Below are positions 1 to 32,384 of a stretch of 64,000 nt of DNA, in pieces. The stretch lies in the NCBI GenBank assembly GCA_964016885.1, contig OZ024740.1:429288001-429352000 (forward strand). The letters run 5' to 3'. The DNA comes from Eledone cirrhosa. Lineage: Eukaryota. A program made the translations under genes and the position numbers. Under the pieces are notes generated by a model. It was not told where the DNA came from. It ran no database searches and saw only the letters and a program-made list of their open reading frames with translations. Numbering within the stretch: position 1 is the first letter of the stretch; the number at the start of each line of letters is the position of its first letter.

Positions 1-2039
1 ACAATTGCTCAAAGATCTGTTGGACATTACTGGAGAAGTAAGCAGGAAGTTATACACATGGTACTATTGCGGAAACCAACTGAAGGGAGACACAATAGAG
101 GAAGTTATACACAAGGTACTATTGTGGGAACCAACTCAAGGGAGACACAGTAGAGGAAGTTATACACAAGGTACTATTGTGGGAACCAACTCAGGGGAGA
201 TACAGTAGAGTAAGTTATACACAAAGTACTATTGTGGGAACCAACTCAGGGGAGATACAGTAGAATAAATTATACACAAGGTACTATTGTGGGAACCAAC
301 TCACGGGAGACACAGTAGAGGGAGTTATACACAAGGTACTATTGTGGGAACCAACTCAAGGGAGACACAGTAGAGGAAGTTATACACAAGGTACTATTGT
401 GGGAACCAACTCAAGGGAGACATAGTAAAGGGTGTTATACACAAGGTACTATTGTGGGAACCAACTTAAAGGGGGAGACACAGTAGAGGGAGTTATACAC
501 AAGGTACTATTGTGGGAACCAACTCAAGGGAGACAGGTAGATGGAGTTATACACAAGGTTCTATTGTGGGAACCAACTCAAGGGAGACACATTAGGGGAA
601 GTTATACACAAGGCACTATTGTGGGAACCAACACAAGGGAGACATAGTAGGGGAAGTTATACACAAGGTACTATTGTGGGAACCAACTGAAGGGGGAGAC
701 ACAGTAGAGGGAGTTATACACAAGGTTCTATTGTGGGAACCAACTCAAGGGAGACACAGTAGGGCAAGTTATACACAAGGTACTATTGTGGGAACCAACT
801 CAAGGGAGACACAGTAGGGGAAGTTATACACAAGGTACTATTGTGGGAACCAACTCAAGGGAGACACAGTAGGGGAAGTTATACACAAGGCACTATTGTG
901 GGAACCAACTCAAGGGAGACACAGTAGGGGAAGTTATACACAAGGTACTATTGTGGGAACGAACTCAAGGGAGACACAGTAGGGGAAGTTATACAGAAGG
1001 TACTATTGTGGGAACCAACTCAAGGGAGACACAGTAGGGGAAGTTATACACAAGGTACTATTGTGGGAACCAACTCAAGGGAGACACAGTAGAGGAAGTT
1101 ATACACAAGGTACTATTGTGGGAACCAACTCAAGGGAGACACAGTAGGGTAAGTTATACACAAGGTACTATTGTGGGAACCAACTCAAGGGAGACACAGT
1201 AGGGGAAGTTATACACAAGGTACTATTGTGGGAACCAACTCAAGGGAGACACAGTAGAGGAAGTTATACACAAGGTACTATTGTGGGAACCAACTCAAGG
1301 GAGACACAGTAGGGTAAGTTATACACAAGGTACTATTGTGGGAACCAACTCAAGGGAGACACAGTAGGGGAAGTTATACACAAGGTACTATTGTGGGAAC
1401 CAACTCAAGGGAGACACAGTAGAGGAAGTTATACACAAGGTACTATTGTGGGAACCAACTCAAGGGAGACACAGTAGGGGAAGTTATACACAAGGTACTA
1501 TTGTGGGAACCAACTCAAGGGAGACACAGTAGAGTAAGTTATACACAAGGTACTATTGTGGGAACCAACTCAAGGGAGACACAGTAGAGGAAGATATACA
1601 CAAGGTACTATTGTGGGAACCAACTCAAGGGACAACACAGTAGGGGAAGTTATACACAAGTTACTATTGTGGGAACCAACTCAAGGGAGACACAGTAGGG
1701 GAAGTTATACACAAGGTACTATTGTGGGAACCAACTCAAGGGAGACACAGTAGGGGAAGTTATACACAAGGTACTATTGTGGGAACCAACTCAAGGGAGA
1801 CACGGTAGATGGAGTTATACACAAGCTACTATTGTGGGAACCAACTCAAGGGAGACACAGTAGGGGAAGTTATGCACAAGGCACTATTGTGGGAACCAAC
1901 TCAAGGGAGACACAGTAGGGGAAGACCTGCTCTAACCTTCATTAATCAACTCTCAGATGATACGAACCTCAGTAAGGGACAGTTACCTGGAGGAATGGTA
2001 AATCGTGGATTGAGGAGAGACTCTGTGAGAAATGTTTGA
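1..2039 (+). mobile_element. RTE-like LINE ORF2 C-terminal remnant, interrupted by a minisatellite expanded from its own sequence
   Basis: Frame 1 from position 1 reads QRSVGHYWRSKQEVIHMVLLRKPTEGRHNRG. After the array it continues VMHKALLWEPTQGRHSRGRPALTFINQLSDDTNL..MVNRGLRR. This resembles the RTE-clade C-terminal motif (RFAGHCWR..LLWEP..GxRxRGRP..TYIDQL..D). Confidence 0.8.
46..1924 (+). repeat. 55-bp minisatellite, ~34 copies (GAAGTTATACACAAGGTACTATTGTGGGAACCAACTCAAGGGAGACACAGTAGGG)
   Basis: Period of 55 read directly (GAAGTT at 101 and 156). There are no unique spacers. Confidence 0.97.
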
Positions 2040-4334: not shown

Positions 4335-5410
4335 TAGGGTAGCCCTTAGCAATAGGTACTTTTCCGAAAGTTAACATTTTGCTGCTCCCACCCTCTAATT
4401 TTGTTTCAATCAAAAAAAAAACACGGTGTGTGGAAAATCTCAGCTCAATGGACAACTGTTGGGCGACCCTCAAACGCCTTGAAGTTGGAACATAGTATAC
4501 GCAACGATTAATTCTGTTCAAAAGTGGTATACTGTTACCTATCTCGACCATTTTCTTTTTTCTTCTTAGAGAAATTTATGTGGACACATCCGAGTAACCC
4601 CTGCAGATGTCCAAAAATATTCTGAATCAAATTTACCAATAGTTAATTTGAAAAATTACTGAAATAACATGAAAAATTTAAGAAATATTAGGTTTTCTTA
4701 ATAAAGCACACAACTTCTATAAGAGAAACGCATTTTTATTTACAACAATAATTTCTATAGAAACAATGTCTTTCAAGGACATAATGTGAACACTGAACAC
4801 TGAATATTGAACATGATTTTTGCATGGTGGATTGGCAGTATCGGTAGAGAGTCGGACACCATGATTTGAAGCATAGAGTTACGTCCCTTTATGATCTGAG
4901 TTCAAATCCCGCCGCGGTTAACTTTGCGTTTCATCCTTACGGGGTCGATAAAATAAAGTACCAGTAATGTACTGGGTAATTTGCTGGCTTTGTGCCAAAA
5001 GTAGAAAGAATTATTTTTGCATAAGAGAGAATTTAGTGACAGTTGGGTGTGTTTTACGGTTTTCAGTAAAACAAATTGTTTCTCAGTTTCATATTTTGTG
5101 AGAATGTTATTGTAATCCTGAGTGAGTTTGACACCTCTTTCTACTACATCACTCACAACAACTGTCTTCTCAAGTTTTTCAACTCCACTTTTGTAACCAG
5201 GATCATCCTTCCATGTTGAGGGGCCTTTGTCGAAGAAATCGGTGTTGATAGAAAATCATGTGAAGAAAGTTTTTGTACCAGGAGTTTCAAAAGACGAAAA
5301 CTCGATGTTTGTAGAGGAATGCAAGTCAATTTGGTGCAGAATGTTAATTTTCTTCCTTTTCTTCACCTTTGTCTGCTTCCAGCATAACTCGAACAATATT
5401 TGCCTTAACC
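4335..5410 (-). mobile_element. hAT-like (hATm-type) DNA transposon remnant: terminus plus transposase C-terminal pseudogene
   Basis: Terminus TAGGGTAGCCCTTA at 4335 matches the TIR of the 9263-9580 element. Minus strand ~5410-5030 reads TKTFFT*FSINTDFFDKGPSTWKDDPGYKSGVEKLEKTVVVSDVVERGVKLTQDYNNILTKYETEKQFVL, similar to the recalled motif 'VVND.AERGVKL.QDYN.ILTK.EEQKQFLL' of hATm-like transposases. Confidence 0.65.
4833..5015 (+). mobile_element. tRNA-derived SINE family A (Nin/Deu-like central domain), copy 1
   Basis: B-box-like GAGTTCAAATC, then TTTGCxTTTCATCCTTACGGGGTCGATAAAATAAAGTACCAG, ending AAGTAGAAA(C/G)AATTATT. Seven copies occur in the window. Confidence 0.85.
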
Positions 5411-8400
5411 TCTCCTTGCTCTCCTTTTTTCATTGCTCTCCCTTATCCTTGATCTCCTTACTCTCCTTTTCTCATTGCTCTCCTAGCTCTCGTTTTGTTA
5501 TTACTCTCCTTACTCTCCTTTTCTCATTGCTCGACTTCCTCTCCTTTCCCATTGCTCTCCTTGCTCTCCTTTTCTCATTGCTCGCCTTCCTCTCCTTTTC
5601 CCATTGCTCTCCTTGCTCTCCTTATCTCATTGCTCTCATTGCTCTCCTTTTCTCATTGCTCTCATTGCTCTCCTTTTCTCACTGCTCTCCTTCCTCTCCA
5701 TCCTTTCATTTTCTCATTGTTTTACTTGCTCTCCTTTTCTCATTGCCCACCTTGCTGTCTTTTTCTCCCTGTTCTCCTTGTTCTCCTTTTCTCTTTGCTC
5801 TCCCTGCTCTCCTTTTCTCATTATTCTACTTTTCTCCTTGCTTTCCTTGCTCTCCTTTTCTCATTGCTCTTCTTGTTTTCCTTTGTCATTGTTTTCCTTG
5901 CTCTCCTTGTTCTTCTTGATTGCATTCCTTTTATCCTTGCTCTTCTTTTATCATTGCTCTATTTGCTCTTCTTTTCTTATTGCTTTCTCTGCTCTCCTTT
6001 ATCCCTGCTCTCTTTATCTCATTGCTCTCCTTGCTCTCCTTTTCTCATTGCTCTCTTTGGTCTCCTTTTCTCATTGCTCTTCTTCTATCATTGCTCTACT
6101 TGCTCTTCTTTTCTTATTGTTCTCTCTGCTCTTCTTTTCTCATTGCTCTCCTTGCTTTCCTTGCTCTCCTTTTATCCTTGCTCTCCTTTTATCCTTGCTC
6201 TCCTTTTCTCATTGTTCTCCTTGCTTTCCATTTCTCCTTCCTCGCTTTGCTCTCTTTTTCTCCTTGCTCTCCTTTTCTCCTTACACTCCTTGTTCTCCTT
6301 TTCTCATTGCTCTCCTTCTTCTCCTTTTCTCCTTGCTCTCCTTTTCTCATTGCTTTCCTTACTCTCCTTTTCTCATTGCTCTTCTTGTTCTCCTTTCTCA
6401 TTGCTTTCCTTGCTCTCCTTGCTCTCCATTTCTCCTTGCTCTCCTTGTTCTTCTTGCTCTCCTTTTATCCTTGCTCTCCTTGCTCTTCTTTTATTATTGT
6501 TATACTTGCTCTTCTTTTCTTATTGCTCTCTCTGCTCTCCTTTTATCCTTGCTTTCCTTGCTCTCCTTTTTACATTGCTCTCCTTGCTTTCCATTTCTAC
6601 TTCGTCTCCTTGCTCTCCTTTTCTCATTGCTCTCTTTGCTCTCATTGCTCTCTTTTTCTCCTTGCTCTCCTTTTCTCCTTACACTCCTTGTTCTCTTTTT
6701 CTCATTGCTCTCCTTGTTCTCCTTTTCTCCTTGCTCTCCTTTTCTCATTGCTTTTCTTGCTCTCCTTTTCTCATTGCTCTTCTTGTTCTCCTTTCTCATT
6801 GCTTTCCTTGCTCTCCTTGCTCTCCTTGCTCTCCCTTTCTCCTTGCGCTCCTTGTTCTTCTTGCTCTCCTTTTATCCTTGCTCTCCTTGCTATTCTTTTA
6901 TTATTGTTCTATTTGCTCTTCTTTTCTTATTGCTCTCTCTGCTCTCCTTTTATCCTTGCTTTCCTTGCTCTCCTTTTTACATTGTTCTCCTTGTTTTCCA
7001 TTTCTCCTTCATCTCCTTGCTCTCCATTTCTAATTGCTCTCTTTGCTCTCATTGCTTTCTTTTTCTCCTTCCTCTCCTTTTCTCCTTCCTCTCCTTGCTA
7101 TCCTTTTCTCCTTGCTCTCCTTGCTCTCCTTTTCTCATTGTTCTACTTTCTCTCCTTTTCTCCTTGCTCTCCTTGTTCTCTTTTTCTCATTGCTCTCCCT
7201 GTTCTCCTTGCTCTCCTTTTCTCATTGTTCTACTTGCTCTCCTTTTTCCTTGCTTTCCTTGCTCTCCTTTTCTCCTTGCTCTCCTTGCTCTCCTTGCTCT
7301 CCTTGCTCTCCTTTTCTCATTGCTCGCCTTCCTCTCCTTTTCCCATTGCTCTCCTTGCTCTCCTTATCTCATTGCTCTCATTGCTCTCCTTTTCTCATTG
7401 CTCTCATTGCTCTCCTTTTCTCACTGCTCTCCTTCCTCTCCATCCTTTCATTTTCTCATTGTTTTACTTGCTCTCCTTTTCTCATTGCCCACCTTGCTGT
7501 CTTTTTCTCCCTGTTCTCCTTGTTCTCCTTTTCTCTTTGCTCTCCCTGCTCTCCTTTTCTCATTATTCTACTTTTCTCCTTGCTTTCCTTGCTCTCCTTT
7601 TCTCATTGCTCTTCTTGTTTTCCTTTGTCATTGTTTTCCTTGCTCTCCTTGTTCTTCTTGATTGCATTCCTTTTATCCTTGCTCTTCTTTTATCATTGCT
7701 CTATTTGCTCTTCTTTTCTTATTGCTTTCTCTGCTCTCCTTTATCCCTGCTCTCTTTATCTCATTGCTCTCCTTGCTCTCCTTTTCTCATTGCTCTCTTT
7801 GGTCTCCTTTTCTCATTGCTCTTCTTCTATCATTGCTCTACTTGCTCTTCTTTTCTTATTGTTCTCTCTGCTCTTCTTTTCTCATTGCTCTCCTTGCTTT
7901 CCTTGCTCTCCTTTTATCCTTGCTCTCCTTTTATCCTTGCTCTCCTTTTCTCATTGTTCTCCTTGCTTTCCATTTCTCCTTCCTCGCTTTGCTCTCTTTT
8001 TCTCCTTGCTCTCCTTTTCTCCTTACACTCCTTGTTCTCCTTTTCTCATTGCTCTCCTTCTTCTCCTTTTCTCCTTGCTCTCCTTTTCTCATTGCTTTCC
8101 TTACTCTCCTTTTCTCATTGCTCTTCTTGTTCTCCTTTCTCATTGCTTTCCTTGCTCTCCTTGCTCTCCATTTCTCCTTGCTCTCCTTGTTCTTCTTGCT
8201 CTCCTTTTATCCTTGCTCTCCTTGCTCTTCTTTTATTATTGTTATACTTGCTCTTCTTTTCTTATTGCTCTCTCTGCTCTCCTTTTATCCTTGCTTTCCT
8301 TGCTCTCCTTTTTACATTGCTCTCCTTGCTTTCCATTTCTACTTCGTCTCCTTGCTCTCCTTTTCTCATTGCTCTCTTTGCTCTCATTGCTCTCTTTATC

Positions 8401-9110
8401 TCCTTGCTCTCCTTTTCTCCTTACACTCCATGTTCTCTTTTTCTCATTGCTCTCCTTGTTCTCCTTTTCTCCTTGCTCTCCTTTTCTCATTGCTTTTCTT
8501 GCTCTCCTTTTCTCATTGCTCTTCTTGTTCTCCTTTCTCATTGCTTTCCTTGCTCTCCTTGCTCTCCTTGCTCTCCCTTTCTCCTTGCGCTCCTTGTTCT
8601 TCTTGCTCTCCTTTTATCCTTGCTCTCCTTGCTATTCTTTATTATTGTTCTATTTGCTCTTCTTTTCTTATTGCTCTCTCTGCTCTCCTTTTATCCTTGC
8701 TTTCCTTGCTCTCCTTTTTACATTGTTCTCCTTGTTTTCCATTTCTCCTTCATCTCCTTGCTCTCCATTTCTAATTGCTCTCTTTGCTCTCATTGCTTTC
8801 TTTTTCTCCTTCCTCTCCTTTTCTCCTTCCTCTCCTTGCTATCCTTTTCTCCTTGCTCTCCTTGCTCTCCTTTTCTCATTGTTCTACTTTCTCTCCTTTT
8901 CTCCTTGCTCTCCTTGTTCTCTTTTTCTCATTGCTCTCCCTGTTCTCCTTGCTCTCCTTTTCTCATTGTTCTACTTGCTCTCCTTTTTCCTTGCTTTCCT
9001 TGCTCTCCTTTTCTCCTTGCTCTCCTTGCTCTCCTTGCTCTCCTTTTATCCTTGCTCTCCTTTTCTCATTGCTCTCCCTGCTCTCCTTTTCTCATTGCTC
9101 TTTTATCCTT
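5410..9110. repeat. Pyrimidine-rich low-complexity array (TTGCTCTCC / TTTTCTCA modules) containing a 1742-bp near-perfect tandem duplication
   Basis: Identical ORF translations are offset by 1742 (6189/7931, 6500/8242, 5920/7662). Confidence 0.92.
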
Positions 9111-9262
9111 GTATCTATGTACTTGTTTATATACACATAGAATAAGAAAGGGGGAGCAATGAGAAATATGTAAGAAGGATAAGGAGAATATATATATATA
9201 TATTACACAATACCGAGTAATCATTTCTCTCAGCTGTCAACCACATACGGATATATGTATAT

Positions 9263-9580
9263 TAGGGTGGCCCTTAGCAATAGCTATTTTTCTGAAAATT
9301 AAAATTTTGCTGCTCCTTAAACGAAATATAGGTATTTGCCCTATACCTGCGCTCTGTCCCCAGCTTTGCAAGATGTCTTCCCCATTATATTTATTGTCAC
9401 CTATCCTTCTAATACCAAGAATTAAACACTTTTTATCGGAAAAAATGACTTTCCGGGCGAAAATTTCAAAATTTCACGGTCGATGAGGGTCGCTTTTGCA
9501 TAGATTGGTTTCTTGTTAGTTGGAACAAGATAGGGGTGGGAGCTAAACTTTTAGAACATTGAAAAATAAGGGCCACCCTA
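9263..9580. mobile_element. Non-autonomous DNA transposon (MITE) with 14-bp TIR TAGGGTGGCCCTTA
   Basis: TAGGGTGGCCCTTA at 9263 and TAAGGGCCACCCTA ending at 9580. The left subterminal sequence is shared with 4335-4390. No clear 8-bp TSD. Confidence 0.75.
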
Positions 9581-9952
9581 TTAAAAATTTATATATGTAT
9601 GTATATATATATATACACAGTTGGGTGCGGATGCATTCATGTATATATGTGTGTGTCCGCATGTATCTGTGTGTTTCTAAATATATTGTTAATAACTCCC
9701 TCTGGTCGAGCAATCTTTGAAGTGTGGGGACAACTGGAAAGCTTCCATTACTCATACTTCTAGCCTTCTTCACCACCTCTTCTGCGGCCTCGATATGAAT
9801 ACCCCCTCCGCCTCCGTGGTATTTTCTTCGTGGTTATAAGAGGCTTAGCTCTGTTTCTCGACCGTTATATCGCGTGACTATCTCCCCCTCCGCCTTTTGG
9901 GATTCTTTCTCACGTCGTGTAGACGCGTTCTTGAGACTAGTAAAATGAGGTA

Positions 9953-10042
9953 TCCTCTTGATAAGTCGGCAGACCTCGCAGGGACTCTATGTCTTTATGA
10001 TATATTGTTTTTGTTTATGCCACGAAACTACGTAGTCGAGGA
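9953..10042 (+). ncRNA. Type I hammerhead ribozyme, U3-A8 core variant
   Basis: Stem I UCCUC/GAGGA; core UUGAUAA; long stem II closed by GUcGGCA/UGCCAC; GAAA; palindromic stem III ACUACGUAGU. Predicted GUC cleavage after 10037. Confidence 0.75.
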
Positions 10043-10547
10043 ATTTAGGAGCAGTTTAGGTATGATACATTTTATTACTAATTATATCTAAATGTTTCTT
10101 CTCTCTTCATAATGTATTTTTAACTCTGATACTGGTTCAGTCTAGTTCAACTGAATTGGTCTGTCCCGGTCATTCATTGAGCAACATCGGTGAAGTTGGC
10201 ACCCTTAACTCACAGTTGGGTGCGGATGCATTCATGTATATATGTGTGTGTCCGCATGTATCTGTGTGTTTCTAAATATATTGTTAATAACTCCCTCTGG
10301 TCGAGCAATCTTTGAAGTGTGGGGACAACTGGAAAGCTTCCATTACTCATACTTCTAGCCTTCTTCACCACCTCTTCTGCGGCCTCGATATGAATACCCC
10401 CTCCGCCTCCGTGGTATTTTCTTCGTGGTTATAAGAGGCTTAGCTCTGTTTCTCGACCGTTATATCGCGTGACTATCTCCCCCTCCGCCTTTTGGGATTC
10501 TTTCTCACGTCGTGTAGACGCGTTCTTGAGACTAGTAAAATGAGGTA

Positions 10548-10637
10548 TCCTCTTGATAAGTCGGCAGACCTCGCAGGGACTCTATGTCTTTATGATATAT
10601 TGTTTTTGTTTATGCCACGAAACTACGTAGTCGAGGA
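10548..10637 (+). ncRNA. Type I hammerhead ribozyme, U3-A8 core variant (second tandem copy)
   Basis: Same sequence as 9953-10042. Predicted cleavage after 10632. Confidence 0.75.
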
Positions 10638-10866
10638 ATTTAGGAGCAGTTTAGGTATGATACATTTTATTACTAATTATATCTAAATGTTTCTTCTCTC
10701 TTCATAATGTATATATATATATATATATATATGTAGATAAATCTACCAAAAGTTTACGGTAGTGTCCAATCCGTATGAAGAACTCAATGTAATCCGGATA
10801 TCATGGAAAGAAGAGATGCATTCAAAAATCACTTTCGGTGAAAGATAAACGGAATACAGAGTCAAG

Positions 10867-11270
10867 ATAAAATATTAAAAAAATAATGAATAAAACAATG
10901 AAACAGTTCCTTATATTAAACAAAAAAAGTTCATTATTTAACGATCGTTTCTAGGACATATATGTGTTAGAATTGGCATGCATATTCAAAAGATCTATGT
11001 ACAAAATTATACAAACTATCAAAGAGAATATACATACCATCACATATATATGCTGTCTTCAGAAATAATTATTTCTGAAGACAGCATATATATGTGATGG
11101 TATGTATATTCTCTTTGATAGTTTGTATAATTTTGTACATAGATCTTTTGAATATGCATGCCAATTCTAACACATATATGTCCTAGAAACGATCGTTAAA
11201 TAATGAACTTTTTTTGTTTAATATAAGGAACTGTTTCATTGTTTTATTCATTATTTTTTAAATATTTTAT
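10867..11270. repeat. Spacer-less near-perfect palindrome with 202-bp arms, axis at 11068/11069
   Basis: Centre ...TCTTCAGAAATAA|TTATTTCTGAAGA...; the arms mirror out to 10867 and 11270 with one visible mismatch. Confidence 0.95.
11068..11204 (+). ncRNA. Hammerhead-like motif with long stem II (mirror copy on the minus strand at 10933-11069)
   Basis: Stem I AUUAUUU/AAAUAAU; CUGAAGA; ~100-nt stem II region with an unpaired base; GAAA-CGAUCG-UU. Confidence 0.55.
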
Positions 11271-11570
11271 ATATATATGTATATATATGCATGCACTATA
11301 TATATATATAGTGTTAGAAGGTAAGGCGACACATACAAGAGATGGACATTCCCCCTTCGTCAGCTGTTAACTACAGATCACGGATATTTCGGCGCATTAT
11401 AAACAGTACATCTATCCATAGCGCGCCCATAGCCTTTTGTTAATCAAAACTCCACGAGGGAAAGAATTGATAGCGAAGAGAGAGAGAAAGAAAATAGAGA
11501 AGAAAAAAAGGAAAAAAAGAAATGAACATACCGATAGAAGGGGGAACACAAGACAATGGCACATGTGAGT

Positions 11571-11693
<123 letters not shown>

Positions 11694-11778
11694 AAAAATT
11701 GAACGGGAACAAAACAGAAAGGCTGTACGAACAAAGGTTTATTAGTTTCCCGCTCTTGAGAGTGGGTGGTGGTGGGGA

Positions 11779-11810
11779 ACGACGTTTCGGGCATAAGCCC
11801 TTCTTCAGGT
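11779..11810 (-). ncRNA. Minimal PLE-type hammerhead
   Basis: Minus strand reads AC-CUGAAGA-AGGGCUUAUGCCC-GAAA-CG-UC-GU. Stem I is only 2 bp. It lies downstream of a PLE RT fragment. Confidence 0.6.
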
Positions 11811-11930
11811 GAAAAGTGTGTGGGAAGAGAGTTCCAAGGGTGTGTAGGGGAGTGGTGGAGAGGCATATAGAAAAAAGGGGGTGAAAGGAAACGGTACAAA
11901 TGAAATTAAATATAAAAACATGATAAAAAT

Positions 11931-12188
11931 ACTACAGAGGCGGCGGATCCTGAGGAGTTGGGAGTAGGGAATAGTGTTTAGTGTGTGTCGGGTGGGAAGA
12001 GGTGAAGTCGAGGTAAGAGTGGGAGTCGGTGGGTTTGAAGAAGGCGGAGGTGACGAGGGAGTGGTGGGAGGGTCGAAACCGACGGAGATGTCTAAGAAGT
12101 GGACGTGAGTGGTGGAGATAGAGGTGGTGAAGTGGATGGGGGGGTGGAAGGAGCAGAAGAAGGAGAGAAAGGAGTCGAGCTGTTCTCG
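11931..12188 (-). pseudogene. Penelope-like element reverse transcriptase C-terminal/thumb fragment (frameshifted)
   Basis: Joining two frames gives EQLDSFLSFFCSFHPPIHFTTSISTTHVHFLDISV / LVTSAFFKPTDSHSYLDFTSSHPTHTK / TIPYSQLLRIRRLCS. These are the hallmark PLE motifs FLD, KPTD.HSYL, S.HP, IPYSQ.LR.RR.CS. Confidence 0.9.
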
Positions 12189-17876: not shown

Positions 17877-18235
17877 TTCAAAGGAATATAAATTAAAATA
17901 ATGGGATAATGTTACATAATATAATGTTCCATATATTGGTTTATACTATGGTGTCTTGGTCGCATCAGCTGTCAGCCATAATCAAGCAGTGTTCATCTGT
18001 CGAGGCTGCATTGTGTGAGATCTGCCTATGGGCAACAAGATGGCTGCCAAAGGGCATATTTACCTTACTAATTAGAGCGTGTTTTCAGGGGAAGTAACTT
18101 CTCAAGAGATTAGAGATTGTGAGTATTTATAGTTAAGTGCTAGTTTTTAAATTTTCCAGCTCTGCGCACCTAACTTCTGCACGAACCCAGCCACCTAGCT
18201 GCTTTCTACTGCATATTGCACATTGAGCATATGCC

Positions 18236-18668
18236 TTTATTTTTATTTCTATGTTCTCTAATTTACCCTTATGTTCTATTTTAGCATGTTGGTAGAGTAC
18301 AGATGATTCTTTACTATCTTGAAGGTCTCGCCAGTGTTCATTTATCCGTTCCCCTACACTACAAGCTGTCTCACCTATGTACACTATATTTTTATCTCTA
18401 CATTGTCCTTCAGTACATCTTATGCTATATACTACATTTCTAGTTTTACAGTTAATATGGTGGCTTAATTTACAGGTTATACATTTCTTATCTATACATG
18501 AGGGTCTTTGGAACGGGTATGTCTTGCTAATAAGTGTTTTTATGGAGGTACCTGGTCGTTCTACTATCTTAATATTGAGTTTATGTTTATCTAGGGCCCT
18601 TCTAAATGTGTAAGCTAGTTCACCTCTAGAGGTTGTATCGATGAACATTACACTCTGGTATTTATTGC
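18236..18668 (-). pseudogene. Second, truncated PLE GIY-YIG endonuclease fragment
   Basis: Diverged copy of ~19435-19868 containing [20 protein letters not shown]. It lacks the C-terminal E/N motifs. Confidence 0.9.
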
Positions 18669-18758
<90 letters not shown>

Positions 18759-18785
18759 TATATATATATACATATATATATATAC

Positions 18786-18841
<56 letters not shown>

Positions 18842-18845
<4 letters not shown>

Positions 18846-20037
18846 TTTCTGAATTTGTTTAGCAAGATTCTTTATCTGAAATCGTGTGTTGAAACCGATA
18901 ATGTTATACTTTGGGAGGGTCATGTTGCCAATAAGTAACACACGCACCAGTTGCTTTCACTTCAATTTATTATATATTTATAAATTTATAAATTTACAAA
19001 TCTACAAACTTATAAATTTCTGGTTGGTTGGTTGGTTCCACAACCAGATAGTTGTTTATATATAGTCATAGTCCTTTCGTCACACACTCTGTGACCTCTT
19101 CAGTGACTGGGGATTCCTTTCTTTGTTTCTGTGCCTTTCCTTTCTTCTGTCCTACGCCATTTTGTTTCTGTGTGTGTGTTGTGTGCTCAGTTTGCGCATG
19201 CGCCACATCCGGGTGTCTGTGTGTGTTTGTGTTCATTTATCTATTTGTTTATTTATTTACACGTTGTTGGTTGGTTGTTTGTTCTATGTGTGTGTGTGTT
19301 TTCATTTTGTCCTTAATTGTAAGTTGTGATGTTGCTGTTCCACTCATATTTTCTATTTAATTTTGGTTGTAATTCTTTTATGCTTACTGCCTCTGTAATT
19401 TGCCTAAACATTGCATCTTTTCTGTGTGTGGATTCTATTTTTATTTCTATGTTCTCTAATTTACCCTTGTGTTCTATCTTAGCATGTTGGTAGAGTACAG
19501 ATGATTCTTTATTATCTTGAAGGTCTCGCCAGTGTTCATTTATCCGTTCCCCTATACTACGAGCTGTCTCACCTATGTACACTATATTTTTGTTTCTACA
19601 TTGTCCTTCAGTACATCTTATGCTATACACTACATTTCTAGTTTTACAGTTAATATGGGGCCTTATTTTACAGGTTATACATTTCTTATCTATACATGAG
19701 GGTCTTTGGAACGGGTATGTCTTGCTAATAAGTGTTTTTACGGGGGTACCTGGTCTTTCTACTATCTTAATATTGAGTTTATGTTTATTTAGGGCCCTTC
19801 TAAATTTGTAGGCTAGTTCGCCTCTAGGGGTTGTATTGATGAACATTACACTCTGGTATTTATTGCTATCATACCATGAGTTTATTCTATTGGCCTTGTT
19901 CCTAGTTCTTTCTATTCTATTCCGTAATTTGCTCCTATACAAGGGGCAGGTCCCATTTATGTCATTATTTAACATTTTTTCCCATTTGGTTCTGGCTGCT
20001 CTATACGCTCTGATTCCAGGTACCTCCGTAAAATCAT
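18842..20037 (-). mobile_element. 5'-truncated Penelope-like element: linker plus GIY-YIG endonuclease (open to the stop at 19313) and 3' pLTR with hammerhead
   Basis: [11 protein letters not shown] linker, [48 protein letters not shown]. Bounded by (TAG)n and (TA)n. Confidence 0.92.
19064..19108 (-). ncRNA. Minimal Type I hammerhead in PLE pLTR
   Basis: AGUCA-CUGAAGA-g-GUCACagaguguGUGAC-GAAA-GGAC-UA-UGACU, about 200 nt after the GIY-YIG stop codon. Confidence 0.78.
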
Positions 20038-20099
<62 letters not shown>

Positions 20100-20237
20100 T
20101 TTGAGACACGTTTTACTGACTTCACAAAACAGTCTAGATGCGATGTTTGGGGATTATTTCTCTGTATGTGAAATGGCAAAGTCGATAGAATGCTTTGCAA
20201 TATTCGTTCCACCATATATATACATATATATATCTCT

Positions 20238-21627: not shown

Positions 21628-24600
21628 ATTTCTTTATTTGCCACAAGGGCGCACAAGAAGAGGGGACAATACAAAGACATGCTGGGAATTTTACATACAA
21701 TCGTATAAAAATATAAAAACAAACAATTACAACAATCGAAATCCCGAATAGGGGGGAGGCGCCACAAATTGGTTGTTTAATACCCCGTCGATAGAACAAC
21801 CCTCAACTCCAGGAGCGTATTGTGCAAGTGCACCTTTCTTCATTTTACTCTCCTCTTCAACCTACAGGCTTATAAACAGAGAAGGCCCAATCACTCGGGC
21901 CATTTTCGCTTCATTCACCCACCTTTCAGTAAATTTACTGAGGTGCAGTGCCTCTCTCTCCACTTTGATTCTCCTTCTAAAGTGGTACCTAAAGAAGGGA
22001 ATCAATTGTTGTCCAGAGAGAAAGGCATCTGTCCTCAGTCCTCTCAATCTCGTCCACCATATAACTTCTTTCACCATAGCCACCGTACAGAGGAAAACCG
22101 TTTTTGAAAGAGGCTGGCGGTTTGATCCTTACTATGGACTCGGCAGTCAACTGGATTTGTCCCATACACGACAGCAGTTGTTCAGCATAGTTCCACAGGT
22201 CGGTTACACCCGGGCAGTGTACAATTGCGTGCAAGACTGTTTCAATGTCCTGCGCGCATCTTGGACACGTCCTCTTGGAAGGATCCTGCCGGGGCGTCCG
22301 TGCCTGTAGATCTTGTCACGAACCGGTAGAGCTCCTCGGTAGCACTGCCAGGCCAGGGACCTCTGGAAGTTGTCCATAGGTCCCGGGCGGAAAGTCCTAC
22401 CAAACAGACTGGTGAGCTCATCGTCTTCGACGCCCAGAGTCTCTCCGAGCACGTCGTCGCCCTTGTAACGTACAATCTCTCTATAGAATGGAGTCTCCAC
22501 TGATTGCTGCGCCCGCTTGCCAGAGGACTATGAGCGCCTGAGCGCATTCAATGTGCCAGGCGCCCATCGTTTTCGGTCTTTTCTTGACCCAGGACTGCAG
22601 CTCCCTCAGCGAGACGAGCTGTGGGAAAACCTGCCTCACAAACGGTGCCCACACCGGTTGGGGGTCGGTGAGGAATACCTGGAGATGCCGCAGCCTCAGC
22701 CCATGTTTGCGCATCATCAGCCACGGCAATTCCAGCCCTCCGTTGGAAGGGTGCTGACAACAGACGGATCTCCTCACCAGCGGAGCCTGCTTCTTCCACA
22801 GAAACTGGAGGAGCATGCGTTCCATCTTGACGAGGTGTTCACGGGGACAAGGCACGACAGTCAAGCGGTAGTAGATGACGGACGCTATGAAAGTGATCGC
22901 CACCTCCACTCGACCTTTCAAGGACAATTTGCACTCTGCCCACTTCTGGGTGAGTGCAAACACCTTGGTCGTGACCTCGTTCCAGTTTTTCTCCACCTGG
23001 TGGTCTGGACCGAACCAGACCCCGAGCAATTTCACCGGTCCGTCCGTCCAGCGTCCGACGACGCTGTCCGACTTCATCGGTTTGCCTCTCCAGGTACCGA
23101 GTTGCAAACAGACAGACTTGTCCGGGTTTAGTTTTGCTCCCGTTAGCGTTTCGTATTCTTTCAGTAAGTTGCCGATCACCCCAATTTCCAAAGTGCTCGA
23201 CACCATTACCGCCACGTCGTCGGCATAAGCCGACGCCTCTTTGCGCAGTCCCGGTTCTAGAGAGATGTCCTGCAACAGCTCCAATTTCCGCAGTAGTGGC
23301 TCTAGAGTCAATACATACAGAATGGAGGAGAGATGGCACCCCTGTCGAATGGAACGCGTGATTGCGAACGGCTCCGATAGGTAGCCGTTCACCTTGACCC
23401 TCGAGCAGATGCTGGTGTGCATCGCCTCGATCCATCCTCTGAACACGGGACCGAAACCGGCCGCCCTGAGAACCGCTTCCAAGTATCGATGGTCGACCCT
23501 ATCGAAATCCTTAGACTGATCCAAGTTGATCAGAACCCCACCGAAGCCGGGTTTACACCCTACCCTCTCTATGATGTATCGCATGAGATGGAGGTTGTCG
23601 TGTATGAACCTGGTCGGGATTACACACGTTTGCGCTTTCCCTACCAGGTTCTCGACGACAAGCGCCAACCTCGTCGCTACCACCTTGGCCAAAATCTTTA
23701 ACTCTGTGTTGAGCAGAGTTATGGGCCTGAAATTGTTAATTTCGTCCCCCTTGTTCTCGTCTTTCCTAATCAGCGTTACTACGCCCTTGCCTGCAGAACC
23801 GGGAATTCTCCCGTTCTGCTGCCAATTGTAGTAGACGGCTTCGAGGACGCCAGAGAACAAGTCCGGCATGCTTATGTAAAACTCATAGGGTAGACCATCT
23901 AGACCTGGTGACTTGCGTTTCCCGCAGCGGCCCAGAGCGTCCCGTATCTCAGTGTCCGTGATCGGTCTTTCGCAGAACTCGGCGTCCGTGTTCGAGAGAC
24001 GCGACAGGCCGTCGAGGTATAAACCTAGTCCATTGCCCCGTTCGGCTCACCGTCGTTCTGCTCAAACAGTCGCGCAAAGTGCTGCTGAAAGGCCGCGCAC
24101 ATTTGCTTGGGGTCAAGTAGCACGCGTCCCTTTTGGTCTTTCAAAGACCGAATCGTGGACTTGTTGCCACTTTTTGCCTCCGCCACTCGGGCCCAGCTGA
24201 CAGCTTTCGCTCTTTCGTTTCCTAGAGCACGTGTTTTGCTTCTGACCACGCAGCCTTCGTGTTTCGCATCGAAGAACTGGTCCAGTGCCGTTCTCGACGC
24301 TAACACTCTAGACGCGTTGCCACTTCTAAGTGCCTCCTCTACCTTGGCTACTAGTTCTCTTTCTATTCTGTTTTTCTCTAAGGCTAACTCTCTGCTATAC
24401 CCTATCGATTCTATTCTAATTGCTTTCTTGAGAGAGTACCACCATCTATTGTTGACGATGGCTCCCGTTAACTGTTACTTGAGTAGTCTACTTATCCTTT
24501 CACTGTAAGCTTTACGTGCCGGCAACGACACGTTCAGCTTCCAGTATCCGGGTCCCTGTCTATGTGTTCTATCACAGTTGACTAAGCAGACGACTAATTT

Positions 24601-26135
24601 GTGATCTGAATAGGCAACCATGTGCATTCGTGGACAGCTTAACATCTCCTTGTTCCTTTCTCTAATGAAGAACCTATCTAAATACGATCTAGATGTCCCG
24701 CTGCAGTTTGCCCACGTCCACTGTGGTGCAGTCGGGAAATCCAGTCGATACCTATCGGCCAGTTGGAATTGGCCGATTAACGTTTTGAGGCTGTTGCACC
24801 CTCTCTACTGGGACATGCTCCCACATAGTCCCATCGTTAATCTAGGATACCATTCCAGTCCCCCACTAAAAGTAAGGAGCGAGACGTTCCCAGAAAAGAC
24901 ACTAGACGCTTAAAGAAGTCTGGCCGTGATTGCGATTGCCCGGTCGGGGCATAAACGGTCACCAGTCTGAAGGCTCCACTTCCAATACTGTTCACGTCTA
25001 GGACTACCAGTCTACCCTCCGGGTCCAAGTGTACTTGCTGTACTTCGACGTCCAGGTTCTTCCGAAACATGACAGCCACTCCACCCCCACCTCCTGGCTG
25101 ACAGAGAGATGCGTAGATCTCAAAGTCGTCGAAGATGGGGGTTAGTTGCTGCCTGTTGTGGATCCTGGACTCGGTGATGGCTATCACATCCATACCGTGT
25201 GACCTAAGGTCGTTTAAAAGTTGGCCCTGTTTCCAGGGCATCCCTAGGCTACGCACATTCACGCTTCCAACTCGTAAACTAGCTATGTTGGTGAAGAAGA
25301 GTTGGAGAAAAAGGACGAAAGGCGCCTTTACCTTTTCGTTTCCTGGAGATCGTGTTGTTCAATCTCCATTTGGGTGCTGGATGGGGTGTTGGGTGGGGTG
25401 GGGAAACATTTTAACAGGACGCGGTTGATGGGTTTCTGGCAGGGGTTGCCCCCGTCCTGTGAAAATTTATTTTTTAGGTCATTGTAGGTTTCCATAGAAA
25501 CCCTTATAAGTTTAAGGTGTAATTCTGCCTTGACGAAAGTTTTGCCCTCCGTCTCCACCTTGGGGTTTTGGGAGATGACCTCTATCAAACTCTTGTGGTT
25601 TGTGTTGATGTATGCGTATTGTTATTTGTGTTTTTGTTGTGTTGTTTTAGTTTGTTGTTCGTTCGGGAGTTTTCTTGTTATGGTGGGTGCTTGATTTTGG
25701 GTGGTGTTGGTGTTGGTTTTGCTGGTAGGGGATGTTTGATTGTGGTGTTGTTTGTGTTGTTGTTTGTGTCTGTGGTTGTGTTGGTGTTGGTGATTGGAGT
25801 TTTGGGGGTTTTATGGTGTCTCTTTTTTTGTTTTTTAGATTTCCGCGGCTCTCCCTCTTCTTCACTTAAAGAAGGAGAAGCAGCTTCATCCGTCGATGAA
25901 TAATCATCGTCAGGTGTGTGGGGTAGGGGTATGTTGTGTGGTGATGGTGTTTCGGTGTGTGTGTTTGTGGTAGTGTTTGATGGAGTGGGATGGGGTGGGG
26001 CTGTGTTCTTCAGGGGTGTTGTCTCTGTTTTTTCTGTTGTTGTTGGTTGAGTGTCTGTTTGTTTTGGTGTGGTTGCTCGTTTCGTCTGTCGTTGTACTTG
26101 TGGAGGTGGTGGTTGTTTAAGTGTTGGTGTTGGTA
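21628..26135 (-). mobile_element. Tx1/L1-like non-LTR retrotransposon, 5'-truncated within ORF1
   Basis: GC-richer block containing a low-complexity ORF1 tail, APE, RT and Cys/His C-terminus. AATAAA at 21638-21633 is followed by a (TATC)n tract. Confidence 0.9.
21862..25286 (-). pseudogene. LINE ORF2 (AP endonuclease + reverse transcriptase + CCHC), disrupted by frameshifts and stops
   Basis: APE: SVNVRSL..DVIAITES..GGGVAV..EGRLV..VYAP..VGDWN. RT: KSPGLDGL, NFRPITLLNTELKI, LDQSKDFDRVDH, IRQGCHLS, SAYADD. C-terminus: ALPVRDK..HAIVHC. Confidence 0.92.
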
Positions 26136-29895: not shown

Positions 29896-29991
29896 ATTCT
29901 CCAGAAGGGCCGGTAGATAGGTAAATATTGCTGATGAGTTGTAACAACAACGAAACTAGTTCAATATTCCTTGTCTGGCCTTCTGGAGAAT
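29896..29991 (+). ncRNA. Minimal Type I hammerhead ribozyme (core 29924-29968) with long extended stem I
   Basis: AAUAUUG-CUGAUGA-GUUGUaacaACAAC-GAAA-CUAG-UU-CAAUAUU. Outer stem AUUCUCCAGAAGG/CCUUCUGGAGAAU. Predicted cleavage after 29961. Confidence 0.88.
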
Positions 29992-31171: not shown

Positions 31172-32384
31172 TGGTCAGTGCTCTGAAGGTATGGTCAGTG
31201 GTCTAAAGGTATGGTCAGTGGTCTGAAGGTATGGTCAGTGGTCTAAAGGTATGGTCAGTGGTCTGAAGGTATGGTCAGTGGTCTAAAGGTATGGTCAGTG
31301 GTCTGAAGGTATGGTCAGTGGTCTAAAGGTATGGTCAGTGGTCTAAAGGTATGGTCAGTGCTCTGAAGGTATGGTCAGTGGTCTAAAGGTATGGTCAGTG
31401 CTCTGAAGGTATGGTCAGTGGTCTAAAGGTATGGTCAGTGGTCTGAAGGTATGGTCAGTGGTCTGAAGGTATGGTCAGTGGTCTAAAGGTATGGTCAGTG
31501 GTCTGAAGGTATGGTCAGCGGTCTGAAGGTATGGTCAGTGGTCTGAAGGTATGGTCAGTGGTCTAAAGGTATGGTCAGTGGTCTGAAGGTATGGTCAGTG
31601 GTCTAAAGGTATGGTCAGTGCTCTGAAGGTATGGTCAGTGGTCTAAAGGTATGGTCAGTGGTCTAAAGGTATGGTCAGCGGTCTGAAGGTATGGTCAGTG
31701 GTCTAAAGGTATGGTCAGTGGTCTAAAGGTATGGTCAGCGGTCTGAAGGTATGGTCAGTGGTCTAAAGGTATGGTCAGTGGTCTGAAGGTATGGTCAGTG
31801 GTCTAAAGGTATGGTCAGCGGTCTGAAGATATGGTCAGTGGTCTAAAGGTATGGTCAGTGGTCTGAAGGTATGGTCAGTGGTCTAAAGGTATGGTCAGCG
31901 GTCTGAAGATATGGTCAGTGGTTTAAAGGTATGGTCAGTGGTCTGAAGGTATGGTCAGTGGTCTGAAGGTATGGTCAGTGGTCTAAAGGTATGGTCAGTG
32001 GTCTGAAGGTATGGTCAGTGGTCTAAAGGTATGGTCAGTGGTCTGAAGATATGGTCAGTGGTCTAAAGGTATGGTCAGTGGTCTGAAGGTATGGTCAGTG
32101 GTCTGAAGGTATGGTCAGTGGTATAAAGGTATAGTCAGTGGTCTGAAGATATGGTCAGTGGTCTAAAGGTATGGTCAGTGGTCTGAAGGTATGGTCAGTG
32201 GTATAAAGGTATAGTCAGTGGTCTGAAGATATGGTCAGTGGTCTAAAGGTATGGTCAGTGGTCTGAAGGTATGGTCAGTGGTCTGAAGGTATGGTCAGTG
32301 GTCTGAAGGTATGGTCAGTGGTCTAAAGGTATGGTCAGCGGTCTGAAGATATGGTCAGTGGTCTAAAGGTATGGTCAGTGGTCT
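31172..32384. repeat. 20-bp minisatellite (GGTATGGTCAGTGGTCT[A/G]AA), ~60 copies
   Basis: Exact period of 20 with no indels seen. Confidence 0.97.

Follow-up and report, generated by a model that had tools for sequence, protein, structure and literature searches.

What kind of element places two perfect 502-bp direct repeats, each with a predicted hammerhead ribozyme, into a (TA)-rich tract of the 3.0 Gb genome of Eledone cirrhosa? The question is raised by an insertion in the window, i.e., the whole 64,000-nt stretch of DNA analysed here (Table 1). The initial annotation described two 502-bp direct repeats with a 93-bp spacer, flanked by (TA)n, and this description is exact. The repeats have zero differences and recur with a period of 595 nt, and (TA)-rich tracts are directly visible on both sides. 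The 502/93/502 layout is peculiar to the window copy and results from 5' truncation at monomer position 174. A target-site duplication is not discernible within (TA)n, either for the window copy or at other loci.

Table 1. Coordinates of the insertion, its parts and its target tracts in the window.
Feature	Position	Strand	Remarks
Left (TA)-rich target tract	9588..9615	.	Sequence
Whole insertion, single arm	9616..10712	+	1.84 monomer units of 595 nt, starting at monomer position 174 and ending at +80
First 502-bp repeat	9616..10117	+	Monomer 174-595 followed by 1-80
Short hairpin predicted to sequester the stem I 5' strand	9947..9957	+	Prediction; see monomer block 501-520
Type I hammerhead motif 1, predicted cut after 10037	9953..10042	+	U3-A8 core, 59-nt stem II, 10-nt palindromic stem III; stem I 5' strand 9953-9957, core 9958-9964, GAAA 10024-10027, stem III 10027-10036, GUC ending at 10037, stem I 3' strand 10038-10042
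Monomer of 595 nt, from one predicted cut to the next	10038..10632	+	42% G+C; sequence, folding
93-bp "spacer"	10118..10210	+	Monomer positions 81-173, present only once in the window copy
Second 502-bp repeat	10211..10712	+	Same sequence as the first
Long-end site (+244 to +252)	10281..10289	+	Used as 3' junction by 40 of 91 arms; lies inside the window copy
Candidate internal promoter element, a motif that we take to be GC-box-like	10397..10407, again 10479..10489	+	Kept in sister family B
Second type I hammerhead motif, predicted to cut after 10632	10548..10637	+	Motif 1 shifted by 595
Short-end site (+80)	10706..10712, also 10111..10117	+	Forms the 3' junction in 44 of 91 arms and in the window copy
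Right (TA)n target tract	10713..10734	.	Common to the insertion and the neighbouring Hydra-PLE insertion; sequence

The element had been annotated as lacking an RT or EN open reading frame. In agreement with this, its longest stop-to-stop frame is 80 aa, and searches of the monomer for RT or EN remnants gave zero matches to a Hydra-PLE profile or to 102 homologous proteins. The single ORF with RT and C-terminal GIY-YIG that defines an autonomous Hydra-clade Penelope-like element (PLE) is absent from the window element. Searching the genome with the monomer gave 157 matches among the 40 scored of 1,227 candidates, nearly all of them 98-100% identical. Exact genome-wide matches numbered 7,696 for an 18-mer of the ribozyme and 2,162 for a 23-mer of this subfamily, with 0 matches for the reversed control in both cases. 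The ribozyme count excludes chance, a single-copy sequence and an assembly duplication. Since the first 100 of the 7,696 matches sit in 49 loci, the genome might contain ~3,800 insertions. Dispersed tandem copies with variable ends had been predicted, and the copies are indeed dispersed, reach 7.66 units in the longest array (L171) and have variable 5' ends, but their 3' ends are fixed. At the sequence level the element thus corresponds to an animal non-LTR retrozyme, as initially proposed, with non-coding dispersed tandem units that each contain a predicted hammerhead.

A sister family, here called B, is ~74% identical overall to the monomer, has both ribozyme arms kept and is non-coding too. 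It was located through the tail of a divergent neighbour in L045, not through the ribozyme, and its 24-mer has 225 exact matches genome-wide (reversed control 0). Family B and the intermediates (L085-L109, L200-L239) are 73-87% identical to the window monomer and have the same core and the same two ends. A 9-kb head-to-head candidate, L200, proved to be a duplicated short insertion. In several family B copies (L202, L207, L234) the short-end site is adjoined by a GC-rich stretch ending in CTAG, presumably a Helitron-like 3' end.

The claim that both repeats carry the same hammerhead with a GUC site was borne out, but the core is UUGAUAA, not CUGANGA, and therefore has the rare U3-A8 variant in place of C3-G8. 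The features of a type I core are otherwise present (a 3-8 pair, G5, A6, A9, G12-A14 and an NUH site, here GUC). Rfam gave zero matches over the whole window at gathering score, and within 9500-12000 no hammerhead family appeared even with E relaxed to 10. Among the loci examined, all motifs of this family carry U3-A8. A gapped search for the canonical C3-G8 core preceding this stem III gave 0 matches, a result on which we place no reliance as the pattern had no positive control. U3-A8 is a natural covariation with activity in vitro according to the accessible text of PMC3088659, and it also occurs in Schistosoma PLEs, where it was reported to be active in vitro (PMC4209133).

When the 97-nt motif is folded in isolation, its centroid is three-way and contains both stem I and stem II (z -1.7), and the fold of the 595-nt monomer beats 100 of 100 shuffles (z -6.3). 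In context, stem I has a predicted probability of ~0, and the monomeric active fold lies 2-7 kcal/mol above the predicted minimum, seemingly because the conserved upstream arm competes for stem I. A dimeric fold is predicted to be 2.5-13 kcal/mol better than two monomeric folds, yet still 4-11 kcal/mol above the predicted minimum. As a prediction, the earlier suggestion that the palindromic stem III favours dimeric cleavage therefore stands. Opening the core within a circle would cost 8 kcal/mol. Such folding would be in keeping with a ribozyme that stays off in the circle and depends on a partner copy or a protein.

Conservation was compared over 7 divergent arms, some of which were picked up via the core pattern and are thus partly selected; here monomer block 501-520 is 98% and block 581-595 is 100% identical vs 77% elsewhere, and the core too is 100% identical. 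The two-sided covariation signal was not above that of shuffles (161 of 500 reach the score), with 87% of cells paired, and the pairing of stem II is maintained through one-sided (G-U) changes. In the main text of 10.64898/2026.07.22.740005, only 1 of 9 Xenopus retrozyme dimers was cleaved in vitro, and an anole PLE could do without cleavage in vitro, with no reads that terminated at the cut (PMC11167929, accessible text). The window contains more minimal hammerhead motifs in other PLE remnants, at 11778-11812 (-) and 29931-29961 (+).

The 3' ends were analysed in 60 loci taken in position order from contig C1 (L140-L199; 35 found with the ribozyme pattern and 25 with the subfamily pattern). 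These loci contain 91 arms, of which 44 have their end at +74..86 and 40 at +236..254, leaving 7 with other ends. Arm 3' ends nearly always abut (TA)n, while 5' ends vary. Each site follows a predicted long hairpin on its 3' side, the short-end site at a distance of ~10 nt (hairpin at monomer 1-70) and the long-end site directly (hairpin at monomer 173-237). Loose (AT)n ends were seen at both sites (10117 for the short end, 9686 as the equivalent of the long end) in run X1, possibly derived from the sample used for the assembly. Arms shorter than 165 nt make up 9 of 38 long-end and 4 of 38 short-end arms, a difference too weak to use.

Pairing of the ends was counted in 89 insertions, i.e., L140-L199 plus 29 of the first 60 loci. 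The remaining 31 were omitted, in most cases because they overlap or are truncated at the locus edge; the readable ones agree with the end pattern, except for odd ends in L048 and L028. There are 41 two-armed head-to-head insertions in the set, and 38 of these combine a short with a long end (0 short+short, 0 long+long, 3 odd-ended), a distribution with P ~3e-12 under independent choice of ends. The window copy is single-armed with a short end. A hand count of 40 family B pattern loci gave 19 short+long pairs, 2 odd ones and 1 apparent short+short pair (L207), which has complex flanks and one end abutting another element.

Coding PLEs with similar insertions exist in the same genome. The right-hand neighbour of the window insertion, at 10735-11270, is a head-to-head, 5'-truncated insertion of a coding Hydra-clade PLE, here called Hydra-1. 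It includes a perfect 202+202 palindrome (10867-11270), ends at +73 and +205 and has its own type I hammerhead with a stem II of ~105 nt and a palindromic stem III. A near full-length copy of Hydra-1 (L081) has SLKNIPIP, RWR, DKT, CxCx5C and GIY-YIG-type motifs, which are Hydra-clade marks in the accessible text of PMC8557442. Both ends are visible in 12 Hydra-1 loci and are short+long in 11 of them (hand count); the apparent short+short case, L083, has complex flanks. Hydra-2 (L110-L139) has many copies, open frames of ~784 aa and tandem arrays of ~3.5-kb units, together with a U3-A8 hammerhead with a long stem II and ends at +20 and ~+100. All 6 of its head-to-head pairs with both ends visible are short+long. 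Like Hydra-1, it inserts head to head into (TA)n. Two four-unit Hydra-2 arrays (L128/L117/L129/L118 and L124/L113/L123/L111) show an alternating ABAB variant at one site each, which hints at a dimeric template or at duplication of a dimer.

Two further families, Hydra-3 and Hydra-4 (L241-L261), one of them with open frames of ~758 aa, have no similarity to the monomer. blastn of the monomer against Hydra-1 to Hydra-4 gave nothing credible, the best short hits having E 0.007-0.03 or being TG/TA repeats. The genome searches for a partner scored 40-126 candidates each. Neptune-like PLE 3' fragments are also present in the window (18133-18858 and 18845-20236, both (-)) and end in (TA)n; they show a weak GIY-YIG match below the Pfam cut-off and a short hammerhead near 19060-19110. 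As this Neptune-like PLE also targets (TA)n, the partner need not belong to the Hydra clade, although this is the best candidate. The window family itself shows 5' truncation, partial tandems, an inverted 5' arm, an optional 3' tail and a microsatellite target, the insertion features of non-autonomous PLEs as given in the accessible text of PMC8557442. A tail that is optional at one end is likewise described for PLEs (PMC3846280, PMC8557442).

Sequence variants inside the insertions provide information on the template. Diagnostic variants were fixed across all units 167 times and mixed 6 times. Private variants were fixed in every pass in 23 cases, where double mutation would be expected to give 0.14, and 14 of these span both arms. 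Opposite arms disagreed at 2 of 294 diagnostic sites vs 93 expected. The 58 near-complete insertions contain 30 haplotypes, and recurrent unit-specific variants are at chance level (9 vs 8.1 expected). Because haplotypes are fixed across units and opposite arms, each insertion, even with 7.66 units, is by its sequence a copy of one monomer. The identity of the window repeats had been taken to imply a recent origin. At ~0.002 substitutions per site per unit ~2 differences would be expected between them and 0 are seen; they are identical mostly because they were copied from one template, and their identity is only weak evidence of youth. Contigs of ~620 nt in runs X4 and X6 were considered as evidence for circles and rejected, as they fit a collapsed tandem.

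Co-occurrence and pLTR similarity have led to the proposal that PLEs mobilise retrozymes via circular RNA. We read the window insertion as an animal non-LTR retrozyme that was likely mobilised by a Penelope-like RT/GIY-YIG protein and likely copied from a monomeric RNA circle of 595 nt, and give this reading as a whole a probability of roughly 0.6. Taken separately, the assignment to PLE-type retrozymes is very likely to be correct, while the circular RNA template is somewhat better than an even guess.

The main competitors to the circular RNA concern the template. Linear read-through transcripts of long tandem master loci, whose units are kept alike by gene conversion or by the masters being few and young, could be provided by long arrays such as that in L171, and the coding Hydra-2 elements form tandems too. 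This is quite improbable in view of the many haplotypes, each fixed across units and opposite arms, and of the lack of any inherited unit order above chance; arrays copied in this way could moreover only shrink with each round of 5' truncation. A cleaved linear monomer of the same PLE-mobilised element, with its ends held by stem I and the RT jumping the nick without a covalent circle, would explain a single haplotype per insertion equally well. Type I hammerhead geometry juxtaposes the cleaved ends and thereby speaks for such a jump. Stops or indels would be expected at the cut, yet 183 of 184 crossings of the cleavage site are identical with 0 indels (roughly one crossing in each locus owes its inclusion to the search pattern or to the best BLAST score, which leaves about half of the 184 free of such selection), and 5' ends lie near the cleavage site in 1 of 91 arms vs 1.8 expected. 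We consider nick-jumping unlikely. The clean crossings together with the single haplotypes argue against both linear templates and fit a covalent circle. They would be equally compatible with an RNA circle and with a rolling-transcribed DNA circle. In the latter case the ribozyme would be idle, and a 595-bp DNA minicircle, formed by repeat recombination or cDNA circularisation, would give uncleaved multimers by rolling transcription for a PLE to copy. This would likewise account for a bottleneck at the monomer and for clean junctions, predictions disfavour the active fold, and cleavage is dispensable for a PLE in vitro (PMC11167929). The ribozyme arms, however, are unchanged between the ~74% identical families, a conservation which is partly selected by the core pattern and could equally reflect protein binding, and we find an idle ribozyme about as doubtful as nick-jumping.

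Other explanations concern the element itself. The ends, the target and the inversions are all of PLE type, and the neighbour at 10735-11270 is exactly a truncated PLE end, so the family might consist of nothing but tandem pLTRs or gutted remains of a coding PLE located elsewhere in the genome; a rare parent might be missed among the 40-126 candidates scored per search. However, none of the arms in the 60 position-ordered loci or in the 40 loci of the sister family enters PLE coding sequence, the sequence past +250 returns to the ribozyme and not to an ORF, there is no coding remnant, and the four coding Hydra families have no shared sequence with the monomer. A pLTR remnant is therefore very improbable. 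The layout of the window copy also resembles an LTR-type mini-element (a TRIM or plant-like LTR retrozyme) in which 502-bp LTRs would enclose a core of 93 bp. Such elements have fixed LTR ends, a type III hammerhead and a short TSD. Here nearly every copy has its own 5' boundary, the tandem units are permuted, inversions occur frequently and the hammerhead is of type I, and we rejected this candidate as hardly credible.

In the preferred reading, a retrozyme copied from an RNA circle, transcription would run across two ribozymes, and cleavage at the two GUC sites, probably by a dimeric hammerhead and perhaps protein-assisted, would be followed by ligation to a circle, as in known retrozymes. 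A PLE protein, probably a dimer, would bind the segment 3' of the ribozyme and cut both strands of (TA)n; insertion in (TA)n is the observed part of this step. The two DNA ends would then prime at +80 and ~+245 on the same RNA. The ends, their pairing and the shared haplotype are observed, and each end of the double-strand cut may prime one of the two sites on the same RNA. Each RT would circle the template, often for more than one lap, and pass straight through the cleavage site, a read-through that is observed as sequence. Finally, the two cDNAs would join head to head, or a single arm would be fixed as in the window.

The animal non-LTR retrozymes in the accessible text of PMC7229834 and the main text of 10.64898/2026.07.22.740005, the supplements of which may list similar families, resemble the window family in their non-coding tandem units with one type I hammerhead each, <50% G+C, self-paired monomer, thousands of copies and coexisting PLEs. 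Their monomers measure 150-450 bp (PMC7229834) or 51-972 bp (10.64898/2026.07.22.740005), compared with 595 nt here. The window family differs in its U3-A8 core and 59-nt stem II, in its short dispersed arrays with head-to-head arms, and in its two fixed ends in (TA)n; no pLTR homologue was found, and cleavage and circles are predicted only. Hydra-clade PLEs (PMC8557442, accessible text; Hydra-1 L081 and Hydra-2) share the (TA)n target, 5' truncation, the inverted 5' arm and two 3' ends, and Hydra-2 further resembles the window family in its U3-A8 core, in the bulged base of stem II and in a stem III that is nearly palindromic. Unlike these, the window family has no ORF and no sequence that aligns with theirs. 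The gap between the two ends is ~165 nt in the window family, 132 in Hydra-1, ~80 in Hydra-2 and 30-40 bp in the published PLEs of PMC8557442.

The Poseidon PLE of Anolis carolinensis likewise has, in vitro, two internal RT start sites downstream of its hammerhead, with both strands extended and a predicted dimer (PMC11167929). It is coding, and its start sites are described in the accessible text as not homologous to the target, whereas the ends of the window family are on short UA-rich patches that resemble (TA)n and are used as a strict pair. Replacement of C3-G8 by U3-A8 is also seen in Schistosoma Cercyon PLEs (PMC4209133) and in other natural ribozymes (PMC3088659). The Schistosoma motifs are minimal and mostly single as far as PMC4209133 describes them, while U3-A8 is found here in every tandem non-coding unit. 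A circular template for PLE tandems was put forward in 2014 (PMC4209133), and the accessible text of PMC8557442 describes the mechanism of tandem and inverted PLE insertions with a one-sided tail as open. A literature search, in which few subscription papers were covered, revealed no U3-A8 retrozyme, no count of strict short+long pairing and no haplotype evidence for a monomer template.

The class of element is already known, and the value of this family lies in its evidence on mechanism. It offers countable footprints of PLE mobilisation, namely the strict short+long rule, one haplotype per insertion over both arms, and seamless passage of the cleavage site. Since one genome offers both the 595-nt RNA and Hydra families whose long open frames provide candidate enzymes, the model is open to in vitro testing. 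We tentatively suggest, as an idea that is rather more likely to fail than to hold, that the family is a genomic record of a PLE reaction in which a dimeric enzyme primes both (TA)n cut ends at two fixed sites and copies one circular RNA twice by rolling circle. Its U3-A8 lineage would have persisted through ~25% divergence as a parasite of Hydra-clade elements, with which it has structure in common and no alignable sequence. If true, the PLE tail, the head-to-head inversion and tandems longer than a unit would be explained by one mechanism.

The surroundings of the insertion are rich in other repeats. A MITE-like short element with inverted terminal repeats (9260-9584) lies immediately to its left. 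A broken LINE at 22481-25358 (-) contains RT and endonuclease/exonuclease/phosphatase domains. Satellite arrays occupy 37184-64000, 45-1924, 5410-9101 and 31172-32384 of the window, with units of 47 bp (~575 copies), 55 bp, 9/26 bp (pyrimidine-rich) and 20/40 bp.
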